Assembly (NCBI GenBank): GCA_041661245.1 | Contig: JBAZUY010000001.1 | Coordinates: forward strand, 678,876-742,875 | DNA length: 64,000 nucleotides | Direction of reading: 5' to 3' | Source: an archaeon | Lineage (GTDB): Archaea > Iainarchaeota > Iainarchaeia > Iainarchaeales > JAAZKV01 | Shown here: positions 27,246 to 44,050 of the stretch, in pieces | Position numbering within the stretch: position 1 is the first letter of the stretch | Layout of the letters: each line of letters opens with the position of its first letter | Notes under the pieces: generated by a model | Database searches by the model: none | The model's input: the letters and a program-made list of their open reading frames with translations, nothing else | What the model was told of the DNA's origin: nothing | Program-made: the position numbers and the translations under genes

Positions 27246-27254
27246 GTGACTTTT

Positions 27255-27632: not shown

Positions 27633-27639
27633 ACAAAAC

Positions 27640-28888: not shown

Positions 28889-29382
28889 AACGCAAAGTAT
28901 TAACATTGACTCATCCTTCAATACAAGACGCATTAAAGGGTGTGGAAACTGCTCGCAATAAAAGTATGTGGAAAGCGTTTAAGGACGCGTTTAAGAAAAG
29001 TTGGCACGCAAGAGATTTTACTGCTGCTAATGGTCCAATTAATGCGGTGCTAAAAGTTAGAGTTGGCGCAAAGGTTGCGGTAGGACACGTTGGAAAAGTA
29101 ATAGCTTACGAAGCTTTCCGAGACAAAGCTCTTCTTACTCAGTTAAAAGATTTGAAAAAAGAAGGATGGACTCATATTACAGTTGACAAAAAAGGACAAC
29201 CAATTCTCGAGAAATTAAGTATGCCTACCGATTACATGTTCTCTGGGCCCAATACAATGCATGCTAATCTGCACCACATTCCAATAAGCAATATACTTGC
29301 TTGGGCTGAGGACTTTAAAGGATCAAAAATCAGAGACGGACTTGCAGCGGCAGGAACCCCAATAGGATTCAAAAAACCGTAA
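28885..29382 (+). CDS. Hypothetical protein (165 aa) inserted between HMGS and thiolase
   Basis: The start overlaps the HMGS stop (ATGA). No recognised motif. Basic N-terminus MKRKVLTLTHPS. Confidence 0.55.
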   Translation: MKRKVLTLTHPSIQDALKGVETARNKSMWKAFKDAFKKSWHARDFTAANGPINAVLKVRVGAKVAVGHVGKVIAYEAFRDKALLTQLKDLKKEGWTHITVDKKGQPILEKLSMPTDYMFSGPNTMHANLHHIPISNILAWAEDFKGSKIRDGLAAAGTPIGFKKP

Positions 29383-29423
29383 ATAAAATTTTGTAAAAAT
29401 AAAAAATGAAAAAAGGGATGTTT

Positions 29424-30578
29424 ATGAAAGTTGGAGTACTAGGAATAGGAATAACAAAATTCGGCGAAATATGGGAACAATCCATGCGCGACTTGTTACT
29501 TGACGCACAACTACGTGCACTAAATGATGCGAAAATAAATGCAAAACAAATAGATGCACTTTATACTGGAAACATGTGCGGAGATTCACTCAGCGGGCAA
29601 TTACATGTTGGAAGTATGGCTGCAGAAAATTTAAACTTAGACAAACCAAGTGTGAGAGTAGAAGGAGCATGTGCATCTGGTTCACTTGCATTAAGACAAG
29701 GAGTTCACGCAATTGAAGCTGGAGAAGCAGATATTGTAATGGTGAGCGGAGTAGAAAAAATGACGGATGTTTCAACAGAACAAGTAACAACTGCACTAAT
29801 GGGTGCAGGGGATGAAGAACTTGAGGGATTTAATGGATTAACTTTCCCAGGGCTTTATGCATTACTAGCAAACGCTTACATGAAAGAATATGGATTGAGT
29901 AGAGAAGTTTTAGCAGAAGTATCTGTAAAGAACCACTTCCACGGAGCAAGAAATCCATACGCACAATTTCAAAGCGAAATAACAGTTGATACAGTACTTA
30001 ATTCAACAATGGTTGCAGACCCATTGACATTATTTGATTGTTCTCCAATAACAGATGGGGCAGCAACAATAATTATTGCAAGCGAAAAAACTGCTAAAAA
30101 AATGGGAAGCGAAGTTTACATTACTGGATCTGGTCTTGCAACGGATACACTTTCGCTAGCAAGAAGAAAATCATTACTTAGACTTGACGCAGGAATAACT
30201 GCAAGAGAAAGAGCTTTTGCTCAAGCAGGAATCACTTCAAAAGATATGGACTTTGCAGAAGTACACGATTGTTTTTCAATTGCAGAAATTTATGCAGTTG
30301 AAGCACTTGGAATTGCTAAACAAGGAGAAGCAGCACAACTTTATACTTCAAAACAAACATACTTTGATGGAAAACACCCTGTTAATACTTCAGGCGGACT
30401 AAAAGCATGCGGACACCCTGTAGCAGCAACAGGAGTAAAACAAGCAGTAGAAGCAACAATGCAATTACGAGGAGAAGCAGGAAAAAGACAAGTAAAAGAC
30501 GCAGAAATTGGAGTAACATATAATGTTGGTGGATCAGGCGGAACAGCTTGTGTACACGTATTTAAGAAAATGAAATGA
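29424..30578 (+). CDS. Acetyl-CoA acetyltransferase (archaeal thiolase)
   Basis: MKVGVLGIGITKFGE, VEGACASGSLAL, the HDCFSIAE region and GGLKACGHPVAATG. The track starts 18 nt earlier, at 29406. Confidence 0.85.
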   Translation: MKVGVLGIGITKFGEIWEQSMRDLLLDAQLRALNDAKINAKQIDALYTGNMCGDSLSGQLHVGSMAAENLNLDKPSVRVEGACASGSLALRQGVHAIEAGEADIVMVSGVEKMTDVSTEQVTTALMGAGDEELEGFNGLTFPGLYALLANAYMKEYGLSREVLAEVSVKNHFHGARNPYAQFQSEITVDTVLNSTMVADPLTLFDCSPITDGAATIIIASEKTAKKMGSEVYITGSGLATDTLSLARRKSLLRLDAGITARERAFAQAGITSKDMDFAEVHDCFSIAEIYAVEALGIAKQGEAAQLYTSKQTYFDGKHPVNTSGGLKACGHPVAATGVKQAVEATMQLRGEAGKRQVKDAEIGVTYNVGGSGGTACVHVFKKMK

Positions 30579-30619
30579 TTAATTAGTAATTGAATTATAT
30601 TTAGTGTAAGGGTGGAAAC

Positions 30620-30820
30620 ATGACAGGATTGATGGAAAAGTTGAAGAATTTGTTTGGAGGAAACTCAAAGGACAAATACGAACACGAAGTTCCAAGAAGA
30701 CTTGAAGTCAAAAAAGAAGAAGTTGCGACTGAAGAGTTCACTCCAAGATACAAATTAGCAAGACAACAAAGAGAAGATAGAGAAATAGATACTCCAATAG
30801 TTAAAAGAAAAAGATTTTAG
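30620..30820 (+). CDS. Small highly charged protein (66 aa) between thiolase and DUF35
   Basis: ORF preceded by the SD-like GGGTGG. Mixed-charge sequence with no motif. Confidence 0.4.
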   Translation: MTGLMEKLKNLFGGNSKDKYEHEVPRRLEVKKEEVATEEFTPRYKLARQQREDREIDTPIVKRKRF

Positions 30821-30866
30821 GAATTAATTTTAGTAAAGTAGAAAAAAAATAAAGAAGGGAAATGCA

Positions 30867-31265
30867 ATGTTTAGAGAAAGTCCAATAATCAGATGGAGAA
30901 GTTACGGCGACCATTACAGGTTGAAAGGATATCAATGCGCTAAATGCAAAGCAACTTTTTTTGAAAAGAAAGGTTTGTGCACTTGCGGAAGCTTGGAATT
31001 CAACGAAATTGATTTCTCAGGAAACGGAAAAATCATTGCATTCACACAAATTCATTCAGGCCCTGAAGTATTTGAAAATAAATCACCATATTGTGTTGCA
31101 CTAATTGATTTAGAAGAGGGGGCAAGAATTGAAGCCCAAGTAATGGACTGCAAATTTGAGGACCTTAAAGCAGGAATGGAAGTAGAAGCAGTGTTTAGAA
31201 AATTCTACTCAAGCGGAGAAAAAGGAGTAATACACTACGGAACAAAATTTATTCCAAAATTTTAA
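30867..31265 (+). CDS. DUF35 OB-fold / zinc-ribbon protein (scaffold of the archaeal thiolase-HMGS complex)
   Basis: Zinc ribbon YQCAKCKATFFEKKGLCTCGS followed by an OB-fold-like segment GKIIAFTQIH...YCVALIDLEEGARI. Confidence 0.8.
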   Translation: MFRESPIIRWRSYGDHYRLKGYQCAKCKATFFEKKGLCTCGSLEFNEIDFSGNGKIIAFTQIHSGPEVFENKSPYCVALIDLEEGARIEAQVMDCKFEDLKAGMEVEAVFRKFYSSGEKGVIHYGTKFIPKF

Positions 31266-31283: not shown

Positions 31284-31547
31284 ATGGATTTTAACACAGT
31301 GAAAAACACTGTTATTCGAACATTCGTTGCACTAATCTTATTCTTCATAGTGTACCTCCCGCTATTTGCCACAACCACTTGCACATGTGTAAGCAATACT
31401 TGTGCAAAAGGAGAAATGAGAGGATTCTTTTTATGCAATGCATGCAATTGCCTCCCAGTAACCGACGCATTAATTCAATTTTTTATATTTGGAGTAGTTC
31501 CATTTTCAATATTCTATTTAGTGGCCTACTTTTTCATTAGAGAATAA
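31284..31547 (+). CDS. Small two-TM membrane protein with a Cys-rich loop (87 aa)
   Basis: TM helices FVALILFFIVYLPLFA and FFIFGVVPFSIFYLVAYFF flank CTCVSNTCAKGEMRGFFLCNACNC, which holds 6 Cys in 24 residues. Confidence 0.5.
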   Translation: MDFNTVKNTVIRTFVALILFFIVYLPLFATTTCTCVSNTCAKGEMRGFFLCNACNCLPVTDALIQFFIFGVVPFSIFYLVAYFFIRE

Positions 31548-31559: not shown

Positions 31560-31571
31560 CTAAATATTTAG
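31560..31571 (+). promoter_or_regulatory. Palindromic TATA-like box ahead of the radical-SAM operon
   Basis: CTAAATATTTAG lies 36-47 nt upstream of ATG 31607. Confidence 0.4.
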
Positions 31572-31606
31572 TATTGTTTTCAACAAGAAGATATTAATAA
31601 GCCTAA

Positions 31607-32275
31607 ATGAGTACCTTTTATATGCCTAAATCAAATTTTTGCATTGTCCTTCCTACTCTTAATGAAGAGAAAGGAATTGCTCAAATGATAAAAGAAGTTC
31701 GCAGATATTTTAACGGAGAAATTATTGTTGCAGATGATGGCTCGGTTGATTCTACTTTAAAGCATGCAAAAACTCAAGATGTAACTATTTTGGACAGAAA
31801 AAATGCTGCAATTCAGGGGTTGATTGCTTCAGTAATTGACTCAGCAAATCTAACAAAAGCAAAATATGTTATCGTAATGGACTCAGACTTTCAACACCCT
31901 GCAAGTGAAATTCCAAAAATTATTAACAAAATGAAAAACAACGACTTAGTAATTTGTTATCGAAGTTCTTTAACTGGCTTAAGCTTCTTGCGAGCAATTG
32001 TCTCACTCCTAGCTTCAGGTTTAGCATATGCTAGACTTGGTAAAAAATTTCAAGATCCATTGTCAGGATATTTTTGTGTAAAAAGAGGACTACTTCAAAA
32101 ATTAGCTACGCAAACTAAAGAAAAACGCGGGTTCAAAGTACTATTTGAACTCCTCAAAAATAACCCAAACTGTAAAATTGCTTATCATGAATATGATTTT
32201 GCCTTAAGAAAATATGGAGTAAGTAAGCTAAATTTGCGACAAATCGGGTACTTTCTTAAGGCTATTTTCAGCTAA
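31607..32275 (+). CDS. Family 2 glycosyltransferase (polyprenyl/dolichyl-phosphate glycosyltransferase-like)
   Basis: CIVLPTLNEEKGI, VADDGSVDST and VMDSDFQHP (DxD region). Confidence 0.75.
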   Translation: MSTFYMPKSNFCIVLPTLNEEKGIAQMIKEVRRYFNGEIIVADDGSVDSTLKHAKTQDVTILDRKNAAIQGLIASVIDSANLTKAKYVIVMDSDFQHPASEIPKIINKMKNNDLVICYRSSLTGLSFLRAIVSLLASGLAYARLGKKFQDPLSGYFCVKRGLLQKLATQTKEKRGFKVLFELLKNNPNCKIAYHEYDFALRKYGVSKLNLRQIGYFLKAIFS

Positions 32276-32306
32276 ATTCTATTAGAAAAACGTGGTGGGT
32301 TGAAGA

Positions 32307-33275
32307 ATGAAACTAGACAAAATGCTATCTAGCGGAACATCAGTAATATTAGCCAAATTTTTAGGAAAAAAAGTCCCTCTCGCCGTGGGGTGGGAATTAA
32401 CTCACAAATGCAATCACACTTGCAAATACTGTATAACTTGCAACAAATTCAACAACGAACTTACAACTAAACAAATCTTCAAAATTGTGGACGAACTCAA
32501 AGAAATGGGTTGCCAAGTAATCGGATACACCGGAGGAGAAGCTCTTCTAAGAAACGACTTAAAACAAATAATTCATTACACAAAAAAGAAAGGAATCTAT
32601 GTAATGCTAACAACAAACGGCGGATTAGTTCCTGAAAAAATAAATGACATACTTGAAGTTGACAATGTACAATTAACATTAGATGGTCCAAAAAGAATTA
32701 ATGATTTACAACGTGAAAAAGGAATGTATGACGAGACAATAAAAGCAATAAAAATCTTTAAAGAAAACTCCATCAAAACTACACTCAACTGTGTTATAAC
32801 AAAATACAATCAAGATCATGTTCCGCAAATACTTGCTGAAGCAGAAGAACTGGGAGTGTCCATAGCTTTCCAACCAGTTGCAAAAAACCTTAAGCAATTA
32901 GTTCCAGATGCAAAGAAATACCGAAAAGCACTTGACTACTTGATTTCTGAAAAAGAAAACGGAAACAAAAATCTGAATCAATCAATCTCAATTCTAAAAC
33001 ATATTTCAAGGTGGCCTAATGAAAGTCCAATAACTTGTGCTGCTGGAATAATTTATTGCAGAATTGATCCTGAAGGATATGTTGCGCCATGCAATATGAT
33101 TTATCAAGAATCAAAAGTTAACGAACTTAATGCTGCAAAGGTTGGTTTCAAAAACGCATTCAATAATTTGCCTAAAATGGATTGTAAAGAATGCTGGCAT
33201 CATTCGAGACTAGACTTAAACTTCATATACAACTTTGACATTAATACAATACTAAGCGTGGCAAAACATCAATGA
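32307..33275 (+). CDS. Radical SAM protein with a SPASM/twitch-type C-terminal Cys cluster (paralog 1)
   Basis: CNHTCKYC (CxxxCxxC) and GYTGGEALL. C-terminal CAAGIIYCRIDPEGYVAPC ... CKECWHHS. Confidence 0.8.
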   Translation: MKLDKMLSSGTSVILAKFLGKKVPLAVGWELTHKCNHTCKYCITCNKFNNELTTKQIFKIVDELKEMGCQVIGYTGGEALLRNDLKQIIHYTKKKGIYVMLTTNGGLVPEKINDILEVDNVQLTLDGPKRINDLQREKGMYDETIKAIKIFKENSIKTTLNCVITKYNQDHVPQILAEAEELGVSIAFQPVAKNLKQLVPDAKKYRKALDYLISEKENGNKNLNQSISILKHISRWPNESPITCAAGIIYCRIDPEGYVAPCNMIYQESKVNELNAAKVGFKNAFNNLPKMDCKECWHHSRLDLNFIYNFDINTILSVAKHQ

Positions 33276-33284
33276 GGCAACCCT

Positions 33285-34712
33285 ATGAAAATCACATTCA
33301 TTTACCCTCCATTTAAGCACAAGAGGTTTAATGAAAACGTTGCGGTAGTAGATGAAGAATTTGGATTATACCAACCAATCGGATTAGCATATGCTGCAGC
33401 AATATATAGAAATCTGGGTGCGCAAGTTGACTTAATTGATGCAAATGCATTAAAACTGACTAAAGAAATCGTTCTTGAAAAACTAAAAACTCAAAAACCA
33501 GACATATTGTCATTTGACCTTCACTCAGCTTACACTTTTTTTGATAATCTTGAATGGATAAAATATTTCAAAGACAACTTAGGCTACAAAGTAATAATTC
33601 TTGTTGGCGGATTTAATTTCAACCTTTATCCAAGCGAAGTAATGTACCACAAAGAGATAGACTTCGGTCTTTTAGGGCAAGCAAACACTACAGCAAAACA
33701 ATTCATGCAATTCTTTGAAAAGAAAACTAGCCCAAGGAAGATACAAGGGTTAGTTTATAGAAAAAATGGAAAAGTAATAATCAACAAACAACCAGAAATG
33801 TTTTGCAACCTCGAAGAACTACCTTTCCCTGCAAGAGACTTAATACCAATGGACAAATACTACTCCTTCATCTCAGGAAGGAAAAATTTTACAGTAATGC
33901 TTTCTCAAATTGGATGTCCATTTAGGTGTAATTTTTGTGCTATTGCAAAAGTTCCTTTCAAGCAGCGCTCTGCAAAAAGTGTTTTTGAGGAAATACTTGA
34001 ATGTTATAATAAATACAAAGTAAGAGAAATAGATTTTTTTGACGGAACATTCACTGCAAACAAAAAAGTAGTCATGGAACTATGTCAGCTAATAATTGAC
34101 TCAAAAATTGACATTGCTTGGAGTTGCAGAACAAGAATTGATAGAGTGGATGACGAACTCCTTTCAATAATGGCAAAAAGCGGATGCAAGAGAATATACT
34201 ACGGAATTGAATCCTCGGATGACAAAGTAATAATCAACATTTGCAAAGACATTACTATTAGTGGGGTAAAAGTAGCAATAGACAAAACTAGAAAATATAA
34301 AATTGCCCCACTTGGCTTCTTTATGATAGGCAATCCAGGAGATACTAAAGAAGGATTTATGAAAACAGTTGAACTTGCAAAATCACTCAACTTAGAGTAC
34401 GCGCAGTTTTCAAGAACAATTGCAAAACCAAAAACAGAGATAGATACAAAATTACAAGGAATAACCAAAAAGGATTATTGGAGTGATTACTTGCTTGGGA
34501 AAGTTGGCGAAGAAAGATTACCAAACCCTTGGTGTAATATTCCTGAAAGCGAGGTTGAACAATTAACTAAGAAAGCATACCTTTCATTTTACCTTAGACC
34601 AACTTACGTATTCAAACGAATTATTGGAATTAGGTCAGTTCATGAATTGTTGCGTTACATCAAAGCCGGATTTAAGATGATATTCTCAATGTTTAAGCAG
34701 GAGGACTTATAA
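33285..34712 (+). CDS. B12-binding-domain radical SAM protein (class B-like), paralog 1
   Basis: N-terminal Rossmann-like GLAYAAAIYRNLGAQVDLIDAN...PDILSFDLHS...ILVGG, then QIGCPFRCNFCAI. Confidence 0.75.
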   Translation: MKITFIYPPFKHKRFNENVAVVDEEFGLYQPIGLAYAAAIYRNLGAQVDLIDANALKLTKEIVLEKLKTQKPDILSFDLHSAYTFFDNLEWIKYFKDNLGYKVIILVGGFNFNLYPSEVMYHKEIDFGLLGQANTTAKQFMQFFEKKTSPRKIQGLVYRKNGKVIINKQPEMFCNLEELPFPARDLIPMDKYYSFISGRKNFTVMLSQIGCPFRCNFCAIAKVPFKQRSAKSVFEEILECYNKYKVREIDFFDGTFTANKKVVMELCQLIIDSKIDIAWSCRTRIDRVDDELLSIMAKSGCKRIYYGIESSDDKVIINICKDITISGVKVAIDKTRKYKIAPLGFFMIGNPGDTKEGFMKTVELAKSLNLEYAQFSRTIAKPKTEIDTKLQGITKKDYWSDYLLGKVGEERLPNPWCNIPESEVEQLTKKAYLSFYLRPTYVFKRIIGIRSVHELLRYIKAGFKMIFSMFKQEDL

Positions 34713-35908
34713 TGATCTGGCCTACAATTTCAAAAAGAAGAAATACTCCAACAATTAACTTGACAACCTGCATTTCTGATGTTTTACTTAAGAAAAAGGA
34801 TTACGTTTCAGATTTAGAAGAAGCATTTGCAAAGTTTTACGGTACAAAATATGCTTTTGCTACTGCAAGTGGTAGACAAGCAATGGAACTTGCCCTAAGA
34901 TCATTTAATCTCAAAGAGGGAGATGAAATTATTTTTCCAACCCTTACCTTCTATGTTCTGCCCTCCATTGTAAAAGAATTAGGATTTATCCCTGTCTTTG
35001 TTAATTGCAAAGAAGACTTCAATATTGATATTGAAGAACTAAAGACAAAGATAACTCCAAGAACAAAAGTAATAATTGCAACACATATTTTTGGAAAAGG
35101 CTGCCAAATTGACTCAATAATGAAAATTGCTCATTCTAATGAAATAAAAGTAATTGAAGATTGTGCGCACATACAAGGAACCACTTACAAGAACAAGCTT
35201 CTTGGAACATTTGGAGACGCTGCATTCTTTTCATTCCAAAATAGAAAACCAATAAACGCATTTGGAGGAGGAATGTTAATAACAAACAACAAACAAATCC
35301 ACAGTATTTCTAAAGACATAATTTCAAAACAAAATAACTCAAGATTAGCAATAGTTCCTCGCTTTTTACTTAACTATTTTGAGCTATTGATGACTAGTCG
35401 TTATTTTTATACTTTCCCAATTCTTTGGTGGAAAAGCAAGACGTATGGAAAATTTGTTTCAGACATTTACCAAAAAGTACATCATAAGAATGTAGATAAA
35501 AGAAAAAGATTCTCAAGACTTCAAGCGAGAATTGCACTAGAGCAATTCAACGCAGTAGAAAAAACTAATGAAAAAAGATTCAATCTGGCTAAAGATTACT
35601 CAAATAACTTAGCAGGTGTCAAAGACTTTACTCTTCCAAGAATAAGCAAAGGGGATAATAGTTTTTACTCTTTGGTTGCTCTTTCTAAACATGCTGATAA
35701 GCTGGGAAAAGATTTGTTTTCAAAAGGGATTGATGTAGGAACTGGTGAAATTGTTTTAAGAAACTGCGGCAAAATGTACGACCCAAAAGGAAATTACAAA
35801 AAAACTGAAGCTATTTTACAACACCTGGTTGAATTGCCAATGTACCAGCAATTAAGCAAAAAAGATATCCAAAAAATATGTTTCACAATAAAGGAAGTGC
35901 TAAAGTGA
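34712..35908 (+). CDS. DegT/DnrJ/EryC1/StrS-family PLP aminotransferase
   Basis: LEEAFAKFYGTKYAFATASGRQAMELALRS, ATHIFG, and SFQNRKPINAFGGG with the Lys in the expected place. Confidence 0.8.
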   Translation: MIWPTISKRRNTPTINLTTCISDVLLKKKDYVSDLEEAFAKFYGTKYAFATASGRQAMELALRSFNLKEGDEIIFPTLTFYVLPSIVKELGFIPVFVNCKEDFNIDIEELKTKITPRTKVIIATHIFGKGCQIDSIMKIAHSNEIKVIEDCAHIQGTTYKNKLLGTFGDAAFFSFQNRKPINAFGGGMLITNNKQIHSISKDIISKQNNSRLAIVPRFLLNYFELLMTSRYFYTFPILWWKSKTYGKFVSDIYQKVHHKNVDKRKRFSRLQARIALEQFNAVEKTNEKRFNLAKDYSNNLAGVKDFTLPRISKGDNSFYSLVALSKHADKLGKDLFSKGIDVGTGEIVLRNCGKMYDPKGNYKKTEAILQHLVELPMYQQLSKKDIQKICFTIKEVLK

Positions 35909-36906
35909 AACTTAGAACAATGTTAAACGGAGGAATAGGTTTTGCAAAAGCAAAACTATTTGGAAAAAAGATTCCGCTTGTTGTCGGGATGGCATTGACA
36001 AATAAATGCAATCTCAAATGCGAGTATTGTAATATTTCTTCAATTAAGTCAAAAGAAATGACAACAAATCAAGTACTACAAGTTATTGACTTGCTTGCAG
36101 ACTCTGGTTGTATTAGGATTGGATTTACTGGCGGTGAACCTTTATTAAGAAAAGATATTAAGGAAATTATTGAACATTGTAAAGAAATGGGGATTGAATC
36201 AACTCTTACCACAAATGGAGTTCTAATAGAAAATAAACTATCTGATTTGAAAGATTTGTCACTTTTGATTGTAAGTATTGACGGTAATGAAAAAGTCAAC
36301 GATTGCATACGTGGAAAGAATTCATTTAAAATGGCAAAAAATGCAGTTACTCTTGCAAAGAAAAGCGGACTACATGTAGCTTTGTCAACAGTAGTTTCAA
36401 AAGCAAATAAAGACCAATTAAAATATTTATTCGACTTTTCAAAAGAACCTAAATCAAGTATTCATTTTCAATTTGTTAGCGGTATACCTCTAACTGCAAA
36501 TAACATTTCAAAATATCTCTTATCCAATTCTGAAAAGAAAGAAATTGTAAGCAGAATAATTGAAGAGAAAAAGATCAATCCTTTAATTTTAAATTCGAGA
36601 GATGGATTAAACGAAATGGCGACTGCCTTATCTGGTAAAAGAATAAACTCCAGCAATTGTGCTGCAGGAAGGATTTTCTTTAGAGTATCCACAGAAGGCA
36701 AACTGTACTCTTGTTGGAGACAAAAAAACAAATCTTCGCTTGACTTAACAAAACTAATTGGAAAAAGTCCAAAAATGTTTGAAAATGAATTAAATAAACT
36801 TTCTTTGCCAGAGTGTGCCTCTTGCGAAATAGCAGACGGAATAGAATTGTCTCTTGTAAATGCTTTGAATCCAAAGTCCGTATTGAATGTATTTTTAAGA
36901 TATTAA
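35905..36906 (+). CDS. Radical SAM protein with a SPASM/twitch-type C-terminal Cys cluster (paralog 2)
   Basis: CNLKCEYC and GFTGGEPLL. C-terminal CAAGRIFFRVSTEGKLYSC ... CASCEIADG. A GTG start at 35905 overlaps the DegT stop, and VKLRTMLNGG aligns with MKLDKMLSSG of paralog 1. Confidence 0.8.
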   Translation: MKLRTMLNGGIGFAKAKLFGKKIPLVVGMALTNKCNLKCEYCNISSIKSKEMTTNQVLQVIDLLADSGCIRIGFTGGEPLLRKDIKEIIEHCKEMGIESTLTTNGVLIENKLSDLKDLSLLIVSIDGNEKVNDCIRGKNSFKMAKNAVTLAKKSGLHVALSTVVSKANKDQLKYLFDFSKEPKSSIHFQFVSGIPLTANNISKYLLSNSEKKEIVSRIIEEKKINPLILNSRDGLNEMATALSGKRINSSNCAAGRIFFRVSTEGKLYSCWRQKNKSSLDLTKLIGKSPKMFENELNKLSLPECASCEIADGIELSLVNALNPKSVLNVFLRY

Positions 36907-36919
36907 TTGCAACAAATTA

Positions 36920-37750
36920 GTGGTCGAAACAATGGTTAAAATAAAGATTGGAATGGAAAGAGAGATGCCAACAAAAGAAGAAGCGAAACTTTTTGATGGA
37001 GTATCTTTAATCAAAGGCGGAAAGGGAAACCCAACACATAACATTAACCAACCTGAAAGAATAAAGGAAATCTCAACATATTTGGATCAACTTTGCTCTT
37101 CATTCAAAGGAAAAGATGTTTGGTATAGACTAGGAGATTTATTGACTTTTCAAGTAAACGCGCTAATTGGGTGTGAAGAGCAAATAAATGAGCTAAATCC
37201 CTTAATGGGACTTAGAGGAATAAGAAGAGCTCTTACTTTTCCTGCCTCTCTAAAAAAAGAACTTGAAATGATTGTTACCCTAAGAAAGAAACACAAAAAC
37301 TTACACTTGTTGATCCCTTTTGTGCATGCTCCAATTCAAATTATTGAACTAAAAAAACATCTAAAGGAAGCAAATTATTCAGGAAGACTTGGAGTAATGA
37401 TTGAGCTCCCCTCTGCTGCACTAACTGTAACGGATTTCATTAAACTTGGAATTGATTACATTGTTGTAGGCACAAATGACTTGCATGACTTTACTTACGG
37501 CATTTCAAGAAGAGACAATGTAAAAGAAAGAATTCACCAAGACAAGGAATATGTTGCGCTAAGAAAACTTCTAAAACAAATCTTGGCAAAGAAAAACAAA
37601 AAGGTAGAATACGTTGTCAGCGTAGACTTACACCCTGTCCTTTTGGATTATGTTAGCAAAATGAACTATGACTCAATATCAATTCCTTATAATGTTCTAC
37701 AAAAGAATCCAGAACTTAGAGAAAAGTTTGTAAAGCTGAAAAAGAAATAA
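36920..37750 (+). CDS. Stand-alone PEP-utilizing-enzyme C-terminal (TIM-barrel) domain protein
   Basis: NPLMGLRGIRRAL, VMIELPSAAL and VVGTNDLHDFTYG resemble the PEP/pyruvate-binding domain of PEP synthase/PPDK/EI. There is no phosphohistidine or ATP-grasp domain. The start may be ATG 36932. Confidence 0.6.
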   Translation: MVETMVKIKIGMEREMPTKEEAKLFDGVSLIKGGKGNPTHNINQPERIKEISTYLDQLCSSFKGKDVWYRLGDLLTFQVNALIGCEEQINELNPLMGLRGIRRALTFPASLKKELEMIVTLRKKHKNLHLLIPFVHAPIQIIELKKHLKEANYSGRLGVMIELPSAALTVTDFIKLGIDYIVVGTNDLHDFTYGISRRDNVKERIHQDKEYVALRKLLKQILAKKNKKVEYVVSVDLHPVLLDYVSKMNYDSISIPYNVLQKNPELREKFVKLKKK

Positions 37751-37759
37751 CTGGTTTTT

Positions 37760-38845
37760 ATGGATTCAAAGAAAATAAGCAAAACATTTGAGTCAATAAT
37801 AGAAAAAGACCGACTTCTTATAGATGAAGCAAAGAAAAACTTGGCTCGCTTTGATAAAGAAGGTTGTTTTGTAGCAATCTACGGCAGTGGGGCAAGATTA
37901 ACTCCTGCAAAAGAAATTGATTATCAAGTATTTTTTAGTGATGGATACACCTTTAGTGAAGAAGATTATTATTTAGCGGGTCCAGAAAAAGGTTGTTCCA
38001 ATTGTAAGTTAAGAAACATGAGTGAGATAAAAAAGTCTTACAGTATCTCCCTAAAACAAGTCACTAGACTAATTGACTTCAAGTTCCTTTTGGGTGACAA
38101 AAAGAAGTTTGACGAGTTCATTAATGAAATGAAACAAACCATCCTAAAAGACAAATCTGAGCAAATAATACTAGCCTTGATAAATGAACGAGAGTTTTAT
38201 TACTCTAAACAAAATAAGAATGATACTAAAAATGGACCTGGCGGAAAAAGAGACATTGATGCAATATACTTTATTGAAAGCCTGCTCCAAGATAAACGCT
38301 CTGACTTTTCAAACATGCTTCAATCAATGAATAACAAAAAAATCCTCTCGAATTCATCAACTTCAAAAATCCTAGAATTTTATGACCAACTAAATAATCA
38401 AAAAGAACCAAGCAAAAAGCTAAGAAAAGAAATTTCCGCAATTTATTTAAAATACATTAAACAACATACAACTAGGGGAAAGCAAAATAGAGGGGCTATA
38501 CTCCTTTCTTTTACTAAGGGGCTAAATCAGTCCATATCAACAAAGACTAAACCAAAAGAGTTAGTTAGTTTAGCGGAGAAATGTTTGAATTCAGAAATTG
38601 GGTTTGAAGAATGGTGTGTTTTACGAAACATTGCAAGAAACACTAACATTTCAGAAGAATTGGCACTCAAACTTGCGAGAAAGTTCAGACAAGATGTTTC
38701 AATGCGCCACATACGAATTGAACTTGTGCGAAATAAAAGTGTGCCAAACCATATTAAAGAAGAAATATTACTAAATGATCCATGCAAGATTGCAATGCAA
38801 AACGCCCTTGGCTCTCAAGCAAATAAAACTGTGGTGAAAAAATGA
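37760..38845 (+). CDS. GlnD-like nucleotidyltransferase-fold protein
   Basis: VAIYGSGARLTPAKEIDYQVFF (compare G.YGR.EL.P.SDIDL) and KNGPGGKRDIDAIYFIE (compare K.GPGGLRDI). Confidence 0.5.
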   Translation: MDSKKISKTFESIIEKDRLLIDEAKKNLARFDKEGCFVAIYGSGARLTPAKEIDYQVFFSDGYTFSEEDYYLAGPEKGCSNCKLRNMSEIKKSYSISLKQVTRLIDFKFLLGDKKKFDEFINEMKQTILKDKSEQIILALINEREFYYSKQNKNDTKNGPGGKRDIDAIYFIESLLQDKRSDFSNMLQSMNNKKILSNSSTSKILEFYDQLNNQKEPSKKLRKEISAIYLKYIKQHTTRGKQNRGAILLSFTKGLNQSISTKTKPKELVSLAEKCLNSEIGFEEWCVLRNIARNTNISEELALKLARKFRQDVSMRHIRIELVRNKSVPNHIKEEILLNDPCKIAMQNALGSQANKTVVKK

Positions 38846-40344
38846 AAGTTGTTTTCAGTTACGCAGCACATGAAAATTTAGGCGTTGAATACTTATCTGC
38901 TTCGCTTAAACGAGCAGGGCACTCCACAAGTCTAGTTTTTGACCCGCAATTATTTGATGACAAGTTCATTAAAGTCGAGTTTCTTGGAAAGTTATACTCT
39001 GTTGAGAAAGAAATAGTTAAACAGATACTTGAAAAGAAACCAGATTTGCTTGCATTATCTGTTGTTAGCGGAGATTTATCTTGGGCGTATAGAATAGCAA
39101 AAGCAGTAAAAGCACAAACTAATGTGCCAATTTTGTTTGGGGGGATTCATCCTTCGTCAGTACCTGAAAAAGTGCTTGAGAATGATTTTGTTGATTACAT
39201 AATTATTGGAGAAGGAGAAAAAGCAATTGTAGAACTAGCTAATGCTTTGGGATCAAAAAAGAATCTTGCTAAGAAAATTTCAAAAATACATGGGCTTGCA
39301 TACAAAACTGCGGGGAGAGTTGTAAAGAATAAACTTTCTCCCCCAATACAGGACTTAGATAGTTTGCCTTTTCCTGACAAGGAATTATTTTATTCTGCAG
39401 CTCCATTTCTAAAAAGAGAATACACAATAGTGACTCGGAGAGGCTGCTTAAATGCATGTACTTATTGTCACAATAGTATTTGGAAAAGCTTGTATGGAGT
39501 TGAATGTTCGGGGATTAGACTTCGCTCAGTAAAAAACGTAATGAAAGAATTAAGGGAAGCCTATGCAAAGTACAAGTTTAATAGATTAAGAATAAATGAC
39601 GATATTTTTACTAGTCATAAATCTTGGCTAAAGGAATTTGCTGACGCTTACTCAAAAGAGTTCAATGTACCTTTTTGGTGCTATGTTTCTCCAACAACTG
39701 TTGATGATGAAACTGCAGAATTGCTAAAGAAAGCGCATTGTTATCAAGTTAGCCTAGGTGTTCAAAGTATTAACCCAGAACTTAGAAAAAAGATATTGCA
39801 CAGATATGAAACTAATGAACAAATAGCTACGGCAATTTCTGCTTTACGAAAAAACAATATAAGATGCATTACTGATAATATGCTCGGATTACCAGAACAA
39901 GAAGAAGACGAACTCTTGGATTTAGCAAAATTTTATCTAAAAAATAGAGTAGATAGAATTTGCATATATTGGTTAATCTATTTCCCAAAAACTAAAATTG
40001 TTGACATAGCCCAAGTTCATGGCAATATTACCCAAAAACAATTAGATAATATTGAATCAGAACCAATTGAGTCTGCAAATACAATACTTAACGAGTACAA
40101 TAATAAAAAATTCATTAAATATCATCTATTACTTCTGGCAACCACGCTACTTCCAACTAAGATAACAACGTGGATAATTGAGAAGAAGATTTACGAAAAA
40201 TTCCCTGCAATAAACCCTTCAATAATTGAAAACCCAATTACTTTTTTTATGAATGATAGAAAAGAAATAGAAAGAGTACGATTTGTTAAAAGATACTTAT
40301 ATTACGGAATTAGAATTCCTTTTCAAAAATTGCTTAAGTTCTAA
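38842..40344 (+). CDS. B12-binding-domain radical SAM protein (class B-like), paralog 2
   Basis: PDLLALSVVSGDLSWAYRIAKAVKAQTNVPILFGGIHPS, then TRRGCLNACTYC. The ATGA overlaps the upstream gene. Confidence 0.75.
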   Translation: MKVVFSYAAHENLGVEYLSASLKRAGHSTSLVFDPQLFDDKFIKVEFLGKLYSVEKEIVKQILEKKPDLLALSVVSGDLSWAYRIAKAVKAQTNVPILFGGIHPSSVPEKVLENDFVDYIIIGEGEKAIVELANALGSKKNLAKKISKIHGLAYKTAGRVVKNKLSPPIQDLDSLPFPDKELFYSAAPFLKREYTIVTRRGCLNACTYCHNSIWKSLYGVECSGIRLRSVKNVMKELREAYAKYKFNRLRINDDIFTSHKSWLKEFADAYSKEFNVPFWCYVSPTTVDDETAELLKKAHCYQVSLGVQSINPELRKKILHRYETNEQIATAISALRKNNIRCITDNMLGLPEQEEDELLDLAKFYLKNRVDRICIYWLIYFPKTKIVDIAQVHGNITQKQLDNIESEPIESANTILNEYNNKKFIKYHLLLLATTLLPTKITTWIIEKKIYEKFPAINPSIIENPITFFMNDRKEIERVRFVKRYLYYGIRIPFQKLLKF

Positions 40345-40904
40345 GTTCTTGCAAAAAGTTTTTGCTTCAAGTAGTTCAATACTGAAGTGTCTGTTAGTTT
40401 AGCATTTTCTACAAGATGCTTATCTAGCAATGGAACTAGAACTACTATGTATGCACTAACTGTTACAAGGTGCATTATTGTAAAAGGAATTTGACCAAGG
40501 ACTGCATCCGTGAAAGTCATTCCAAACATCCAAGAGGACATTATTGGGCCAGTTATAAAATCAAATATTAGCACTCCTAATATTCCTGCTTTCAAATATT
40601 TTAATAATCCAATCTTTTTGGCGTTAACTTTAAAGTAAAAATTTGAGAAAAAGAAACCAAGTAATGCATAAGTTCCAGCAGTTACAATTGTCCACACTCC
40701 AACTTTTCCTGTGATTATATCAAAAGAAACCATTGTCAAAAGAGGAAATAAAACAGCAATATATTTGTGCTTAGTTTTAGCATAAGGCAACATTATTGCC
40801 ATGATTGGATCATTATTAGGAATAAAATGAAGCAATCGAATAAGGTTTGATAAAATAAGTCCTGCGAAGAACTTTACTATTCCGACATTTGTTTCCTTTG
40901 TCAT
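40341..40904 (-). CDS. Small polytopic membrane protein, DUF6580 / ECF S-component-like putative transporter
   Basis: Five to six TM helices. The N-terminal RLLHFIPNNDPIMAIMLP resembles the R.IPH.PNF.PI.A pattern of that family, from memory. Confidence 0.4.
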   Translation of the reverse strand: MTKETNVGIVKFFAGLILSNLIRLLHFIPNNDPIMAIMLPYAKTKHKYIAVLFPLLTMVSFDIITGKVGVWTIVTAGTYALLGFFFSNFYFKVNAKKIGLLKYLKAGILGVLIFDFITGPIMSSWMFGMTFTDAVLGQIPFTIMHLVTVSAYIVVLVPLLDKHLVENAKLTDTSVLNYLKQKLFART

Positions 40905-40953: not shown

Positions 40954-42591
40954 TCAGCATTTATTCTGTTTAAGTATTTTTTCTCTGTAGTTTAGAAGCA
41001 TTCCGTTTGGAAGAGGAGACATTTTTATTTTGAGTTTCTTTCTTCGCTCTTCAAGTTCTTTATTTGAAATTAAAACATCAATTCTTTTTTTAGTTAAATC
41101 AATTTTAATTTTGTCTCCATTTTTTACAAGCGCAATGTTTCCGCCGATTGCGGCTTCGGGATCAACGTGTCCAATGCTTAATCCTTTAGTTGCTCCGGAG
41201 AAACGTCCATCAGTAATTAATGCAACATCCTTGTCAAGTCCAAGTCCTGATATTGAGGAAGTCGGGTAAAGCATTTCAGGCATTCCTGGTGCGCCTGCTT
41301 TACCAACGTAACGAATAATTATTACATTTCCTTTCTTTACTTTTCCACTCTCAATAAATTTTTGGCAACTCTCTTCATCATCAAAACAAACCGCACTTCC
41401 CTCAAATATTTTTTCAGCTTCAGAACTTATCCCTGCAGTTTTAATTACAGCGCCATTCTTTGCTAAATTTCCTCTAAGAATTGCAATTCCTCCAGTTGTT
41501 GAATAAGGAGTTTCTATTGGTTTAATCATTTCGGGATTTTTGTTCTTTGCATCAATTAATCTTTCATATAGCATTCCGTCAATTGTTTTATTATTTTTAA
41601 TTAAATTTTTCTTTTTTAGTTCAGCCAAAACCGCAGGAATTCCTCCGGCGTTATGTAAATCAATCATTCTAAAAGAACTATTTGGAGAAATTTTTACTAA
41701 GTTTGGAGTTTTTTCTGAGAAGGAATTAATTTCTTCTAAGTCAATTTTAATTCCGGCTTCGTTAGCTATATCCGGTAAGTGAAGAACCGTATTTGTGCTT
41801 GCTCCTATTGCAAGATCCATGTGAAGTGCGTTATCAAAAGCAGTTTTATTCAAAATATCTTTTGCTCGAATATTTTTCTTTACAAGTTCAAGTACTTTTG
41901 CACCTGCGTTAAATGCTTGATTTGATTTTTCTTGAGTTATTGCGTGAGTGGTTGCGCACATTTTCTCGCTCATTCCAAGTGTTTCAACAATACAAGCCAT
42001 TGAGTTTGCAGTAAATAATCCTGCACAGCTTCCTGCGCCTGGGCAAGATTTGCAAATAATATTGTCATATTGTTCTTGATTAATTTTATTTCCCTCAAGA
42101 GCGGCTTTTGCTGAAAAAGAATCCTTAACATCCATTACTTTTTCTCCATTTTTCCCAGGCATCATTGGTCCGCCAGTAACAAATACACTTGGTAAATTAC
42201 ATCTAATTGCAGCCATTAAGTGGCCAGGAACTATTTTGTCGCAAGAGCAAATAAAAATTGCTCCGTCAAAAACTCCGTGTCCTTTAATAGTTGCTTCAAT
42301 GGAATCGGCAATTATTTCTCTTGAAGGCAAGGAGTATCTCATTCCTTCGTGCCCCATTGCAATACCATCGCAAATAGCAATAGTGTGGAATTCAAATGGG
42401 ACTCCTCCCGCAGCAATTACTCCTTTCTTTGCTTCTTCTCCAAGCGCACCTAAATGAATGTGCCCGGGAACAATATCCACTTGAGAATTAACAATTGCAA
42501 TAAAAGGTTTTTTCATTTGCTCGGTTTTTAGTCCATCCGCGTAAAGCAAACTCTTTGCTGCTGGCAATTCTTTAATAGTTTTTGAATCCAT
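40954..42591 (-). CDS. ilvD: Dihydroxy-acid dehydratase
   Basis: [31 protein letters not shown] and TDGRFSGAT. Confidence 0.9.
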
Positions 42592-42654
42592 AAATATGCC
42601 TTTTTAAAAATAAAACTCTGAAGAAATTTAATTTCCCCAGAGCACTAAACTTTT

Positions 42655-43638
42655 TTATTTCTTTTTGAACATTGCTCTAATTTCTTTTCCAATTGTTTCA
42701 ATTGGGTGTTTTCTTTCTTCGTCAATCATTCTTTCCATGTTCTTGAATCCTTTCTTGTATTCGTCAACGAATTCATCAGCGAACTTTCCGCTTTCTACTT
42801 CATCAAGGATTTTGTGCATTTCTTTTTTAGTTGCAGGAGTAATAATTCTTTTTCCTCTTGTTAATCCACCGTAGCACGCAGTGTTACTAACAACATCATA
42901 CATGTGCGGAATTCCTCCTTCATAAACAAGATCAACAATTAATTTCATTTCGTGCAAGCATTCAAAGTAAGCCATTTCAGGAGGGTATCCTCTCTCTGTT
43001 AATGTTTCAAATCCTGCTTTAACTAATTCTGCAAGTCCTCCGCAAAGAACTGCTTCTTCTCCGAACAAGTCTTCATAAGTTTCTTGTGGGAAAGTACATT
43101 CAATTACTCCTGCCCTAGTAAATCCGCAAGCTTTAGCCATTGCAAGTCCATTTTCTTTTGCTTTTCCACTAGGGTTTTGATAAACTGCTAAAAGCCCTGG
43201 TACTCCAAATCCTTCTAAGTATCTTTTTCTTTCTTCAGTTCCTGGAGATTTTGGTGCAACCATTATTACATCAATATCTTTTGTTGGAATTATTTTTTTG
43301 AAAGCAATATTAAATCCGTGAGAGAAAGAGAGTGTTTTTCCTACTTTCATAGAAGGTGCAATTTCTTTTGCATACACTTCTGCTTGAACTTCATCCGGTA
43401 TTAGAATGTGGACAATATCAGCTTTTGCTGCTGCGTCTTTAACTGAAAGTGTTTTTAGTCCGTCTTGTTTTGCAAGTATATCACTCTTACCGCCAATTCT
43501 TACTCCTACTATTACATCAAGTCCAGAGTCATGCATACATTGAGCCTGTGCTCTTCCTTGTGCCCCATAACCTATTACAGCTATAGTTTTTCCTTTTAGT
43601 ACTTCTAGTTTTGCATCCTTGTCTTGATATACCTTCAT
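42655..43638 (-). CDS. ilvC: Ketol-acid reductoisomerase
   Basis: IAVIGYGAQGRAQA, SHGFNI and EDLFGEEAVLCGG. Confidence 0.9.
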   Translation of the reverse strand: MKVYQDKDAKLEVLKGKTIAVIGYGAQGRAQAQCMHDSGLDVIVGVRIGGKSDILAKQDGLKTLSVKDAAAKADIVHILIPDEVQAEVYAKEIAPSMKVGKTLSFSHGFNIAFKKIIPTKDIDVIMVAPKSPGTEERKRYLEGFGVPGLLAVYQNPSGKAKENGLAMAKACGFTRAGVIECTFPQETYEDLFGEEAVLCGGLAELVKAGFETLTERGYPPEMAYFECLHEMKLIVDLVYEGGIPHMYDVVSNTACYGGLTRGKRIITPATKKEMHKILDEVESGKFADEFVDEYKKGFKNMERMIDEERKHPIETIGKEIRAMFKKK

Positions 43639-43689
43639 CTAAAACACACTCCTTAATAAAAATAACTTTCTTCATTTCTGTTTTTGTAC

Positions 43690-43977
43690 TTACAATTTTT
43701 TTGCTCTTGACAAATTGAGTTTTTTTCTTCTTTTGTTTGCAAGTTGTGCTAACATTTTTCTTCTAATATACTCTACGCCCACCATTGGGCCATTTGCACT
43801 CAAGAACATCTTCTCTTTTTTGGCAATCTGAATACTTTTTTTCCCTTCAGCAGAATTTGCTTTGAGATTAACTAATCCCAAGCTAGCCATGGCCTTTGCT
43901 TTGCGGTTTAACCGAAGTAGTTTTGTAGTTGCTTTGGTTCTTTCTCCCCCAAGTAATACTCTTCGTGGCATGTTCAT
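43690..43977 (-). CDS. Small very basic protein (95 aa) inserted between ilvN and ilvC
   Basis: Lys/Arg-rich ORF (RRKMLAQLANKRRKKLNLSRAKKL) preceded by the SD-like GAGG. No motif recognised. Confidence 0.45.
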   Translation of the reverse strand: MNMPRRVLLGGERTKATTKLLRLNRKAKAMASLGLVNLKANSAEGKKSIQIAKKEKMFLSANGPMVGVEYIRRKMLAQLANKRRKKLNLSRAKKL

Positions 43978-43998
43978 TTCCTCGTAACTTTATCCCTT

Positions 43999-44050
43999 AT
44001 TTCGCTATCTTGCAAATTGCTATTTGCATCTAGCGAAATTGTTATTTCGC
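43999..44050 (-). promoter_or_regulatory. Structured RNA element: two mutually exclusive hairpins at the ilvN stop codon
   Basis: Hairpin A spans 43999-44039: a 9-bp stem ATTTCGCTA/TAGCGAAAT enclosing a 7-bp stem TGCAAAT/ATTTGCA with loop TGCT. Hairpin B spans 44033-44050: GCGAAAT-TGTT-ATTTCGC. They share the arm at 44033-44039. The outer arm of hairpin B covers the last ilvN codons and the stop. Confidence 0.5.

Follow-up and report, generated by a model that had tools for sequence, protein, structure and literature searches.

A conserved, radical SAM-rich eight-gene operon in an archaeon of the Iainarchaeales, with a possible role in tailoring lipid-linked or surface sugars

Published work describes radical S-adenosylmethionine (SAM) enzymes that contract the ring of sugars already bound to an acceptor, the examples being HpnJ, Cds and, as proposed, PtmC (PMC13459092; PMC9092360). 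The family 2 glycosyltransferase (GT2) HpnI, the carbohydrate esterase family 4 (CE4) deacetylase HpnK and HpnJ, a radical SAM enzyme with a B12-binding domain, lead in this way to bacteriohopanetetrol cyclitol ether (PMC13459092). The pactamycin set comprises the glycosyltransferase PtmJ, the oxidoreductase PctP, the aminotransferase PctC/PtmA, PtmC and the C-methyltransferases PtmH/L/M (PMC9092360). Here we analyse an operon of eight genes (p1 to p8), among them four for radical SAM enzymes, found in a stretch of 64,000 nucleotides (the window: positions 678,876 to 742,875 of contig JBAZUY010000001.1, assembly GCA_041661245.1) from an archaeon of the Iainarchaeales. The cluster is real and conserved, and is not described in any library or paper searched. 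Our favoured reading, to which we give about an even chance, is that of a radical SAM cassette tailoring a sugar for a lipid-linked or surface glycoconjugate, with parts that have moved horizontally between bacteria and archaea.

The operon resembles the HpnI/K/J system, in which a GT2 first puts a hexosamine on a lipid acceptor, where a B12-domain radical SAM enzyme then remodels it. Among curated families, HpnJ matches p3 best (NCBIfam, E 7e-42, 143.8 bits, over the full length), and bacterial blocks of homologues pair GT2, CE4 and HpnJ-like radical SAM genes. However, p3 stays far below the cut-off of the HpnJ equivalog (TIGR03471, 577.6 bits), the window has neither hopanoid genes nor a CE4 deacetylase, the amine would come from DegT transamination and not from deacetylation of GlcNAc, and the operon adds p6, p7 and two twitch-type radical SAM enzymes. 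The pactamycin set, compared by enzyme class only and not by sequence, offers the same classes: a glycosyltransferase, oxidation and transamination of the bound sugar, a proposed radical SAM ring contraction, and C-methylation. There, in contrast, the acceptor is a polyketide bound to an acyl carrier protein in Streptomyces and the oxidoreductase is of the NAD type, where the operon would use twitch-type radical SAM oxidation. Calditol synthase (Cds), compared by description only, is likewise an archaeal radical SAM enzyme working on a sugar already on the membrane lipid, but it is a single enzyme, with homologues reported mainly from acidophiles.

The eight open reading frames (ORFs) are co-directional on the plus strand, span 31607-40344 (Table 1) and are translationally coupled, with intergenic gaps of 31, 9, 13 and 9 nt and overlaps at TAATG (34710-34714), GTGA (35905-35908) and ATGA (38842-38845). 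A first-pass annotation, made from the letters alone, had described these junctions, which were verified in the sequence, and its domain calls were all correct when set against Pfam and profile comparisons. The GTG at 35905, with its 4-nt overlap, is a likelier start of p5 than the ATG at 35878, because homologues align from p5 residue 10; the ATG at 31622 is favoured for p1, because the GT2 of the related contig L004 aligns from p1 residue 6; and gene callers start p6 at ATG 36932, a possible alternative. A spacer of 59 nt precedes p1 and holds a perfect palindrome of 12 nt, CTAAATATTTAG, which lies 36 nt from ATG 31607 and 51 nt from ATG 31622 and could plausibly serve as a TATA box of the archaeal kind. 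The window gave no match in Rfam and tRNA scans, and therefore no riboswitch, such as a cobalamin riboswitch, is placed ahead of the operon. The G+C content at third codon positions is 0.23-0.30 in the operon and 0.18-0.23 in neighbouring housekeeping genes, a difference too small for dating any transfer.

The operon recurs in other DNA. L004, a metagenomic contig of 33 % GC, encodes a GT2, a radical SAM enzyme, a B12-domain radical SAM enzyme, a DegT aminotransferase, a further radical SAM enzyme, a phosphoenolpyruvate (PEP)-binding barrel and a p7-like protein in the order of the window. This contig ends inside the p7-like gene, so that seven genes could be checked, and all seven are kept in order (46-78 % identity). 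A locus of 64 % GC, present in several samples (L009-L014), has a gene with a cold-shock domain and one for a multihaem cytochrome, which makes a bacterial origin probable; in L009, full-length orthologues of p2, p4, p5, p7 and p8 are found in the same order and translationally coupled. Since independent contigs that differ greatly in G+C share the gene order, the operon is more than a chance assembly, and the co-occurrence in relatives that the first-pass annotation had proposed as a check is partly borne out.

The conservation is nevertheless uneven. L009 has no p1, p3 or p6, and in their place encodes a 542-aa radical SAM protein weakly resembling YydG epimerases, an NT5C-family nucleotidase, whose gene follows the p7-like and precedes the p8-like one, and an 804-aa double radical SAM protein. 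The cluster has six proteins with radical SAM domains. The 804-aa protein, a fusion of two radical SAM/SPASM enzymes, ends the cluster, and its N-terminal half passes the cut-off of TIGR04083, 'peptide-modifying radical SAM enzyme' (353 vs 300). Downstream in L010, a 587-aa B12 radical SAM gene gave no BLAST match to the query set. The idea of one eight-gene system thus holds only in part: five genes are co-conserved over a very large phylogenetic distance, but the distant cluster has no p1, p3 or p6, and neither p6 nor p7 occurs in any of the 78 other p8-family loci examined. The operon is therefore mosaic and not one indivisible unit.

None of the eight proteins reaches an NCBIfam equivalog cut-off, the source records of the homologues carry no informative names, and literature searches for a cluster of this content gave no match, only general or lipid-focused papers; no matching work was found on B12 radical SAM enzymes in Omnitrophota glycan loci. 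The operon is thus undescribed, as first supposed. It is not a categorically new system, because all its enzymes belong to well-known superfamilies and its overall logic has precedents. The new elements are the cross-domain five-gene core, the near-orphan p7, the stand-alone PEP barrel p6 that has lost its catalytic Cys, and the link of a very large unnamed B12 radical SAM family to glycan loci. A nonulosonic acid pathway with NeuB/PseI/LegI and a CMP-synthetase, an identity that would have undone the first reading, is not what the operon encodes, given that p6 and p7 match neither the NeuB family nor CTP_transf_3 in Pfam and NCBIfam.

All four radical SAM proteins match the Pfam Radical_SAM family at 74-89 bits (78 for p3 and 74 for p8; cut-off 29.5) and possess the CX3CX2C motif of the superfamily, as CNHTCKYC (p2, residue 35), CPFRCNFC (p3), CNLKCEYC (p5) and CLNACTYC (p8). 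An N-terminal B12-binding domain (PF02310, cut-off 32.1 bits) assigns p3 (44.2 bits) and p8 (71.4 bits) to the B12-domain class. The best curated matches of p8 are BchE, a ladderane-type lipid B12 family and HpnJ, the last at 98 bits and hence also short of the equivalog cut-off; for the p8 orthologue of L009, the best curated match is HpnJ.

Indications of function come from the relatives of p8, the most widely conserved member of the operon. One search returned 492 homologues at E<=1e-30, none of them informatively named, and p8 relatives are encoded in 325 genome stretches, from bacteria (Omnitrophota, Elusimicrobiota, Patescibacteria, Planctomycetota, Thermodesulfobacteriota and Acidobacteriota) as well as archaea (Woesearchaeota and Aenigmatarchaeota). 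Context was counted in 78 p8-family loci. A p3-like gene (38-46 % identity) stands beside the p8-like gene in 13 of them, and in several a p2/5-like gene then follows the pair; such blocks of p3-like (43-46 %), p8-like (42-50 %) and p2/5-like (33-35 %) genes occur in Omnitrophota, Elusimicrobiota, Planctomycetia and other loci, with GT2 genes before the bacterial blocks and a CE4 deacetylase after them. Recurrent neighbours of the family are PMT_2 (an ArnT-like GT-C glycosyltransferase), GT2, GT1/4, Polysacc_deac_1 with DUF3473, nucleoside diphosphate (NDP)-sugar epimerase/dehydratase, Wzy_C, glutamine-dependent Asn synthase and DegT, at least one of which is present in 38 of the 78 loci when sought with few exemplars. 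In a Woesearchaeota locus (L021) the order is GT2, epimerase, methyltransferase, B12-domain radical SAM and p8-like gene. This neighbour content is that of surface-polysaccharide and lipid-linked-sugar pathways, and it supports the tailoring of a sugar or glycoconjugate. The first-pass annotation had proposed a modified sugar, cyclitol or lipid head group on a polyprenyl or archaeol carrier: the presence of p8, p3 and p2/5 homologues in glycan-assembly loci strengthens the sugar, cyclitol or head-group part, whereas the carrier and any link to archaeol lipids are conjectural.

The recurring partners DegT, small GT2, CE4 deacetylase and PMT_2 also recall ArnB, ArnC, ArnD and ArnT of the pathway that adds 4-amino-4-deoxy-L-arabinose (L-Ara4N) to lipid A, in which ArnC works on Und-P, and p1 and p4 match ArnC (E 5e-8) and ArnB (E 6e-41), far under the equivalog cut-offs. 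Unlike that pathway, the operon has no ArnA and the window neither CE4 nor GT-C, while the Arn pathway has no radical SAM enzymes. In a neighbour-joining tree without support values, p8 of the window pairs with p8 of L009, and the pair adjoins a group of Omnitrophota and Patescibacteria, apart from the Woesearchaeota homologue, which suggests that p8 may have been transferred between domains. When the 5,162 ORFs of all retrieved loci were searched with profile hidden Markov models (HMMs) for the families of p6 and p7, no additional members appeared, so that p6 and p7 are not part of the widespread module. In four loci from Omnitrophota and Planctomycetales (L035, L039, L052 and L062), six to eight p8-like paralogues are arrayed in tandem on one strand, at 33-41 % identity to p8 and often with DegT nearby; no description of such arrays was found.

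The carbohydrate side of the operon is represented by p1 and p4. p1 is a Glycos_transf_2 protein (Pfam, 66.6 bits) with a DSD motif within VIVMDSDFQ, 57 % identical to the GT2 of L004. Its best NCBIfam matches are AglJ, PgfS, PpgS, ArnC and a dolichyl-phosphate hexose transferase, and the scores against the first four (32-54 bits) fall far short of cut-offs of 325-529. p4 belongs to DegT (Pfam, 231 bits) and has the features of the DegT/DnrJ/EryC1/StrS class, including the pyridoxal phosphate (PLP) lysine: in the alignment to 7b0d, a glutamine:scyllo-inositol transaminase, the Lys of SFQNRK falls on that of FYPTK. The inosose aminotransferases 2c7t, 5w71 and 7b0d match p4 at about 1e-32 to 1e-35, and NDP-sugar aminotransferases do so about equally. 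No specific equivalog (ArnB, PseC, LegC, DesI or WecE) is reached at its cut-off, the scores against PseC and LegC being about 143 bits vs 420 and above.

p2 (322 aa) and p5 (about 333 aa) are paralogues with 31 % identity to each other, and are 77 % and 57 % identical to their respective L004 orthologues, over the full length in the case of p2. Their C-terminal part has only CX12GX4C and CX2C, that is, four conserved Cys (C244-x17-C262 and C293-x2-C296 in p2; C261-x17-C279 and C313-x2-C316 in p5), with no extension beyond about 330 aa. The SPASM/twitch-like clusters first noted are therefore twitch-like; the seven Cys of a full SPASM domain (CX9-15GX4C, CX2CX5CX3C and a final C) are missing, and Pfam SPASM gives no match. 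This arrangement is consistent with a twitch or half-SPASM domain and one predicted auxiliary cluster. BtrN, a twitch radical SAM dehydrogenase, pairs with the DegT aminotransferase BtrS in the pathway to butirosin and 2-deoxystreptamine. The operon shares with this pair the adjacency of twitch-type radical SAM and DegT genes, the C...C...CxxC four-Cys pattern of p2 and p5, and the inosose aminotransferase matches of p4. It differs from it in having no 2-deoxy-scyllo-inosose synthase (DOIS) and in that p4 is equally like NDP-sugar aminotransferases; p2 and p5 are not detectably nearer to BtrN than to many other SPASM/twitch enzymes. A metagenome scan anchored on the p2 alignment gave best matches of only 36 % identity and no informative synteny, the patterns being too specific.

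From the observed gene order, domains, motif states, co-conservation and contexts, we infer a sequence of catalytic steps and the nature of the product, with much less confidence in any single step than in the general reading of sugar or glycoconjugate tailoring. p2 and p5 would act as anaerobic dehydrogenases (or as epimerase/dehydratase) on secondary alcohols of a hexose-derived substrate, and p4 would transaminate the resulting keto group or groups. p3 and p8 might carry out C-C chemistry on the sugar skeleton, either C-methylation or a ring contraction to a cyclitol of the HpnJ/Cds/PtmC kind. p1 would couple the sugar to polyprenyl phosphate or another lipid acceptor, before or after tailoring. 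p6 and p7 appear to be an add-on confined to this small clade, and may together add or activate a PEP-derived or nucleotide-linked group, or serve as a specificity or scaffold subunit.

p6 matches only PEP-utilizers_C in Pfam (93 bits) and aligns with the C-terminal domain of the PEP synthase 8a8e (E 2e-28). It is of the fold family of PEP synthase, pyruvate phosphate dikinase (PPDK) and Enzyme I of the phosphotransferase system, and retains Mg2+- and PEP-binding motifs: the Arg of WYR, NPxxGxRGxR, the Glu of MIELP and the Asn-Asp of GTND, the last two aligning with E745 and N768/D769 of PPDK. Unlike these enzymes, it has no phosphohistidine swivel, no ATP-grasp domain and no catalytic Cys, since SICGQAG of PEP synthase has become VVSVDLHP with Val at the Cys position, and the first Arg motif is changed from LLRAE to LIKGG. 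Being the barrel alone, p6 is neither a PEP synthase nor a PPDK nor an Enzyme I, and the operon encodes no phosphohistidine or nucleotide-binding (ATP-grasp) partner for it. p6 would thus probably bind PEP or pyruvate with Mg2+ and be incapable of the canonical phosphohistidine and Cys chemistry. A search of 5.8 billion proteins found only six relatives. About 8 residues ahead of NPxxGxRG, all seven family members (p6 and P0003-P0008) carry a GC[ED] motif whose Cys is invariant; the canonical catalytic position is Val, Leu or Ile in four of the seven and Cys in P0004-P0006, the three members that are 47 % identical. A homologue of 47 % identity lies between the genes for prolyl- and cysteinyl-tRNA synthetase with a 4-nt overlap, and one of 29 % identity lies with Cys_Met_Meta_PP, DUF455 and PALP enzymes.

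p7 is the least conserved gene of the operon, with 46 % identity between the window and L004 where the other genes have 57-78 %. It has no Pfam domain, exhaustive HMMER searching found only three relatives among 1.84 billion representative proteins, a word-indexed homologue search found only p7 itself, and a sequence search of the PDB gave no match even at E 10. Comparison with a GlnD-like relative by hhalign (probability 92.6 %, E 4.5e-7, residues 33-215) covers the nucleotidyltransferase strand-loop YGSGARLTPAKEIDYQ and the GGxRD motif of the helical domain (GGKRDID). The link to GlnD as a whole is weak (NCBIfam E 1e-4, GlnD model 20.7 bits vs 519; Pfam GlnD_UR_UTase E 0.06). The metal motif DxD reads DYQ in the window, DKQ in L004 and DVD in L009; the archaeal copies may be catalytically impaired, because Gln replaces the second metal carboxylate in the first two. 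Of the GlnD-like nucleotidyltransferase first announced, a remote homology remains, and the window copy has a degenerate motif; p7 may be described as a diverged, possibly impaired GlnD-type homologue with a repeat domain. An AlphaFold2 model from a four-sequence alignment has a mean pLDDT of 51, leaves the N-terminal 118 residues unmodelled and is confident only for a helical part at about residues 250-340, and Foldseek against the PDB returned nothing below E 0.2, only generic ARM/HEAT repeats. A GCxxC motif (KGCSNC, KGCETC and IGCPGC) is conserved in p7 and its homologues in L004 (6883-7536) and L009 (10001-11134), at the place of WDTGLDVG in GlnD-like proteins, and a C-terminal HDPCK motif is conserved inside the helical repeat.

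A bolder proposal, which we regard as doubtful, is that the p2-p4-p5-p7-p8 core represents an unrecognised cross-domain radical SAM pathway to a new class of aminated, C-branched or carbocyclic (pseudo-)sugar, to which p6 and p7 would add unprecedented archaeal chemistry. A lipid-linked sugar might then undergo PEP-derived C3 extension, or enolpyruvyl or phosphoryl activation, before the radical rearrangement, and the outcome would be a new archaeal head group or surface glycan.

Several points weigh against the tailoring of a lipid-linked or surface sugar. The enzymatic assignments are all at superfamily level, because no curated cut-off is reached, and the roles given to p6 and p7 are wholly conjectural. 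Because the family of p8 is large and rich in paralogues, the context of relatives with 35-50 % identity may not carry over. An NDP-sugar synthase, a dehydratase, a flippase and a GT-C are all missing from the operon, and those other ORFs of the window that were scanned yielded no GT-C either. L009, the most similar of the distant clusters, has no glycosyltransferase within 19 kb and holds peptide-type radical SAM enzymes and a small upstream ORF (38 aa). Finally, the best PDB matches of p2, though weak, are the peptide-modifying SPASM enzymes SkfB, CteB and PqqE.

Some of these points would fit a specialised metabolite that is soluble, for instance an aminocyclitol, a modified nucleoside or a compound resembling an aminoglycoside; an intermediate linked to a nucleotide would then be handled by p7 and, in the bacterial version, by the NT5C-family nucleotidase. 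In the fosfomycin pathway, a cytidylyltransferase step precedes methylation by a B12 radical SAM enzyme. The composition of L009, with its nucleotidase and six radical SAM-domain proteins in the absence of a glycosyltransferase, speaks for such a product, as do the inosose aminotransferases among the top PDB matches of p4 and the best PDB match of p3, the aminoglycoside enzyme AprD4 (6fd2, E 3e-20). AprD4 itself is not known to carry cobalamin. We consider this explanation unlikely in view of the Dpm1/ArnC-like GT2 of the archaeal version and the location of p3, p8 and p2/5 relatives in polysaccharide loci; moreover, the operon includes no carbocycle-forming synthase of the DOIS or inositol-phosphate synthase type, no exporter and no resistance gene.

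The peptide-type enzymes raise the alternative of a core cassette that modifies a ribosomal peptide or protein, in the manner of peptides that are synthesised on the ribosome and modified after translation (RiPPs), with twitch/SPASM enzymes that cross-link or oxidise, B12 enzymes that C-methylate and a GlnD-like p7 that recognises or modifies the peptide. GlnD and GlnE do act on proteins, and relatives of p7 nucleotidylate them. The TIGR04083-type half of the L009 fusion, the YydG-like 542-aa protein and the PDB matches of p2 all point this way, and small ORFs precede the cluster not only in L009 but also in L004 (135 aa) and the window (87 aa, Cys-rich). These candidate precursors are, however, mutually dissimilar, p2 and p5 match peptide maturases only weakly and far under family cut-offs, and a protease, a leader-peptide-binding (RRE) domain and a transporter are all missing from the operon. 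Both DegT and GT2 enzymes are of the carbohydrate type, and the homologous blocks sit in glycan loci; a RiPP-like system is accordingly rather improbable. The 87-aa ORF (TTTCTCVSNTCAKGEMRGFFLCNACNC), directly upstream of the palindrome and with hydrophobic segments at its flanks, looks like a membrane protein with two transmembrane (TM) segments, has no similar ORF in L004 or L009 and no NCBIfam match, and was judged unlikely as a precursor.

Tailoring of the isoprenoid lipid core (methylation, bridging or cyclisation, as by Hgm/Gmm, Hbs and Grs) would tie the operon to the mevalonate and polyprenyl genes upstream of it. Lipid tailoring by pairs of a SPASM/twitch and a B12 radical SAM enzyme, such as Hbs with Hgm, is documented; such pairs cluster in archaea, and Omnitrophota too have homologues of Hbs (bioRxiv 10.1101/2023.10.20.563219; PMC13459092). 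In the window, genes for a polyprenyl synthase, an IDI2-like enzyme, HMG-CoA reductase, HMG-CoA synthase (HMGS), thiolase and a DUF35 protein precede the operon on the same strand (17126-31265), and p3 and p8 match a 'lipid biosynthesis B12-binding/radical SAM' model at about 1e-28. The adjacency to lipid-precursor genes, stressed in the first-pass annotation, is real in this genome, but the linkage is seen in no relative, no lipid genes accompany the cassette in L009 or the Omnitrophota loci, and adjacency in a compact genome is weak evidence. The scores against the lipid model (97-99 bits vs a cut-off of 360) are no better than those against many other B12 families, and p5 scores 70.8 bits vs 450 against the NCBIfam Tes model. 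Hbs is an extended AhbD homologue with a COG4001 domain (bioRxiv 10.1101/2023.10.20.563219), unlike the short p2 and p5, and core-lipid tailoring has no role for DegT or GT2. We therefore hold this possibility to be a slim one.

Modification of a tetrapyrrole or cofactor, or a viperin-like antiviral system making modified nucleotides, is very improbable, since the matches in its favour (NirJ, AhbC and AhbD among the top NCBIfam matches of p2 and p5, PADLOC pVip models for the same two at 1e-22 to 1e-25, and BchE for p8, beside the nucleotidase of L009) are all far under the curated NCBIfam cut-offs where such exist and, for NirJ, AhbC, AhbD and pVip, span the generic radical SAM core only (roughly residues 25-185), while no other tetrapyrrole or defence genes are present and the glycan context of the homologues counts against both. 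PADLOC gave core-level pVip and PDC-M51A only, with pVip profile positions 2-156 of 257-262 matched and the viperin C-terminal extension unmatched, and defence was rejected as a candidate function.

Should the operon indeed tailor a sugar for a glycoconjugate that is lipid-linked or on the surface, then B12-domain radical SAM enzymes of one large unnamed family would modify glycans or glycolipids in lineages that are anaerobic and for the most part uncultivated (Omnitrophota, Elusimicrobiota, Patescibacteria and DPANN-type archaea), and radical C-C chemistry on sugars would be far commoner in surface biosynthesis than HpnJ, Cds, PtmC and GenK suggest. Unusual surface glycoconjugates may matter for the host attachment of host-dependent, small-genome archaea. 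p6 and p7 are rare and have altered catalytic motifs, and their function would be new biochemistry. With eight genes on one strand and one putative promoter, the operon is compact and self-contained, which suits it to heterologous expression.

Table 1. Features of the operon, its flanks and related loci. Positions refer to the window unless a locus is named; the last column gives identity to the L009 orthologue.
Feature	Position	Strand	Assignment	Identity
p1	31607-32275	+	GT2 glycosyltransferase, putatively a polyprenyl-phosphate sugar synthase (Dpm1/AglJ/ArnC-like); start probably 31622	
p2	32307-33275	+	Radical SAM enzyme, twitch-like four-Cys C-terminal domain	50 %
p3	33285-34712	+	Radical SAM enzyme, N-terminal B12-binding domain; nearest curated family HpnJ	
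p4	34712-35908	+	DegT/DnrJ/EryC1-class PLP aminotransferase	42 %
p5	35878-36906	+	Radical SAM paralogue of p2, twitch-like four-Cys domain; likely start GTG 35905	37 %
p6	36920-37750	+	Stand-alone PEP-utilizers_C TIM-barrel without canonical catalytic Cys	
p7	37760-38845	+	Near-orphan; N-terminal part remote GlnD/GlnE-type nucleotidyltransferase and helical domain, C-terminal helical repeats	22 %
p8	38842-40344	+	Radical SAM enzyme, N-terminal B12-binding domain; most widely conserved member	53 %
Palindrome CTAAATATTTAG	31560-31571		12 nt, perfect; candidate archaeal TATA-like element upstream of p1	
Giant ORF	7254-15425		2723 aa	
Polyprenyl synthase	17126-18277	+		
IDI2-like gene	19102-20193	+	FMN_dh type	
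Laminin_G_3/C1q protein	20274-22583		769 aa	
HMG-CoA reductase	24972-26261	+		
HMG-CoA synthase	27839-28888	+		
165-aa ORF	28885-29382			
Thiolase	29406-30578	+		
DUF35/ChsH2-like protein	30867-31265	+		
87-aa ORF	31284-31547		Cys-rich	
DUF6580-like protein	40341-40904	-	Multi-TM; convergent with p8, overlaps its stop codon by 4 nt	
Branched-chain amino-acid genes	40954-46298	-	ilvD, ilvC, small and large acetolactate synthase subunits	
p6 homologue, L006	1493-2317		Stand-alone, context unlike the operon	
p6 homologue, L007	1629-2486		Stand-alone, context unlike the operon	
L009 upstream flank	2-4543		Three HEAT-repeat proteins ahead of the cluster	
L009 fusion	13271-15685		804 aa, end of the cluster	

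Within the isoprenoid-precursor genes, the 165-aa ORF between HMG-CoA synthase and thiolase overlaps the stop codon of the synthase, has no Pfam or NCBIfam match, and could represent an additional partner, hitherto unrecognised, in the archaeal complex of HMGS, thiolase and DUF35. Searches of NCBIfam with other flanking or unknown ORFs (the NT5C-family protein of L009 and a 426-aa protein of L021) found nothing. At the other end of the operon, the multi-TM protein convergent with p8 scores 26.4 bits against DUF6580 in Pfam, just below the 27-bit cut-off, and has no NCBIfam match; a function in transport, for example of a cofactor, is speculation. The same convergent arrangement is found in contigs L001-L003, from other samples and with the same p7 protein.

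Directly downstream, the branched-chain amino-acid genes are followed by aconitase-family (leuCD-like) genes, and their presence would be of note should the organism be an archaeon of the DPANN type whose genome is reduced. Upstream of the operon, the window encodes a giant ORF and a Laminin_G_3/C1q protein (Table 1); large proteins of this surface or adhesion type are characteristic of host-associated archaea with small genomes.

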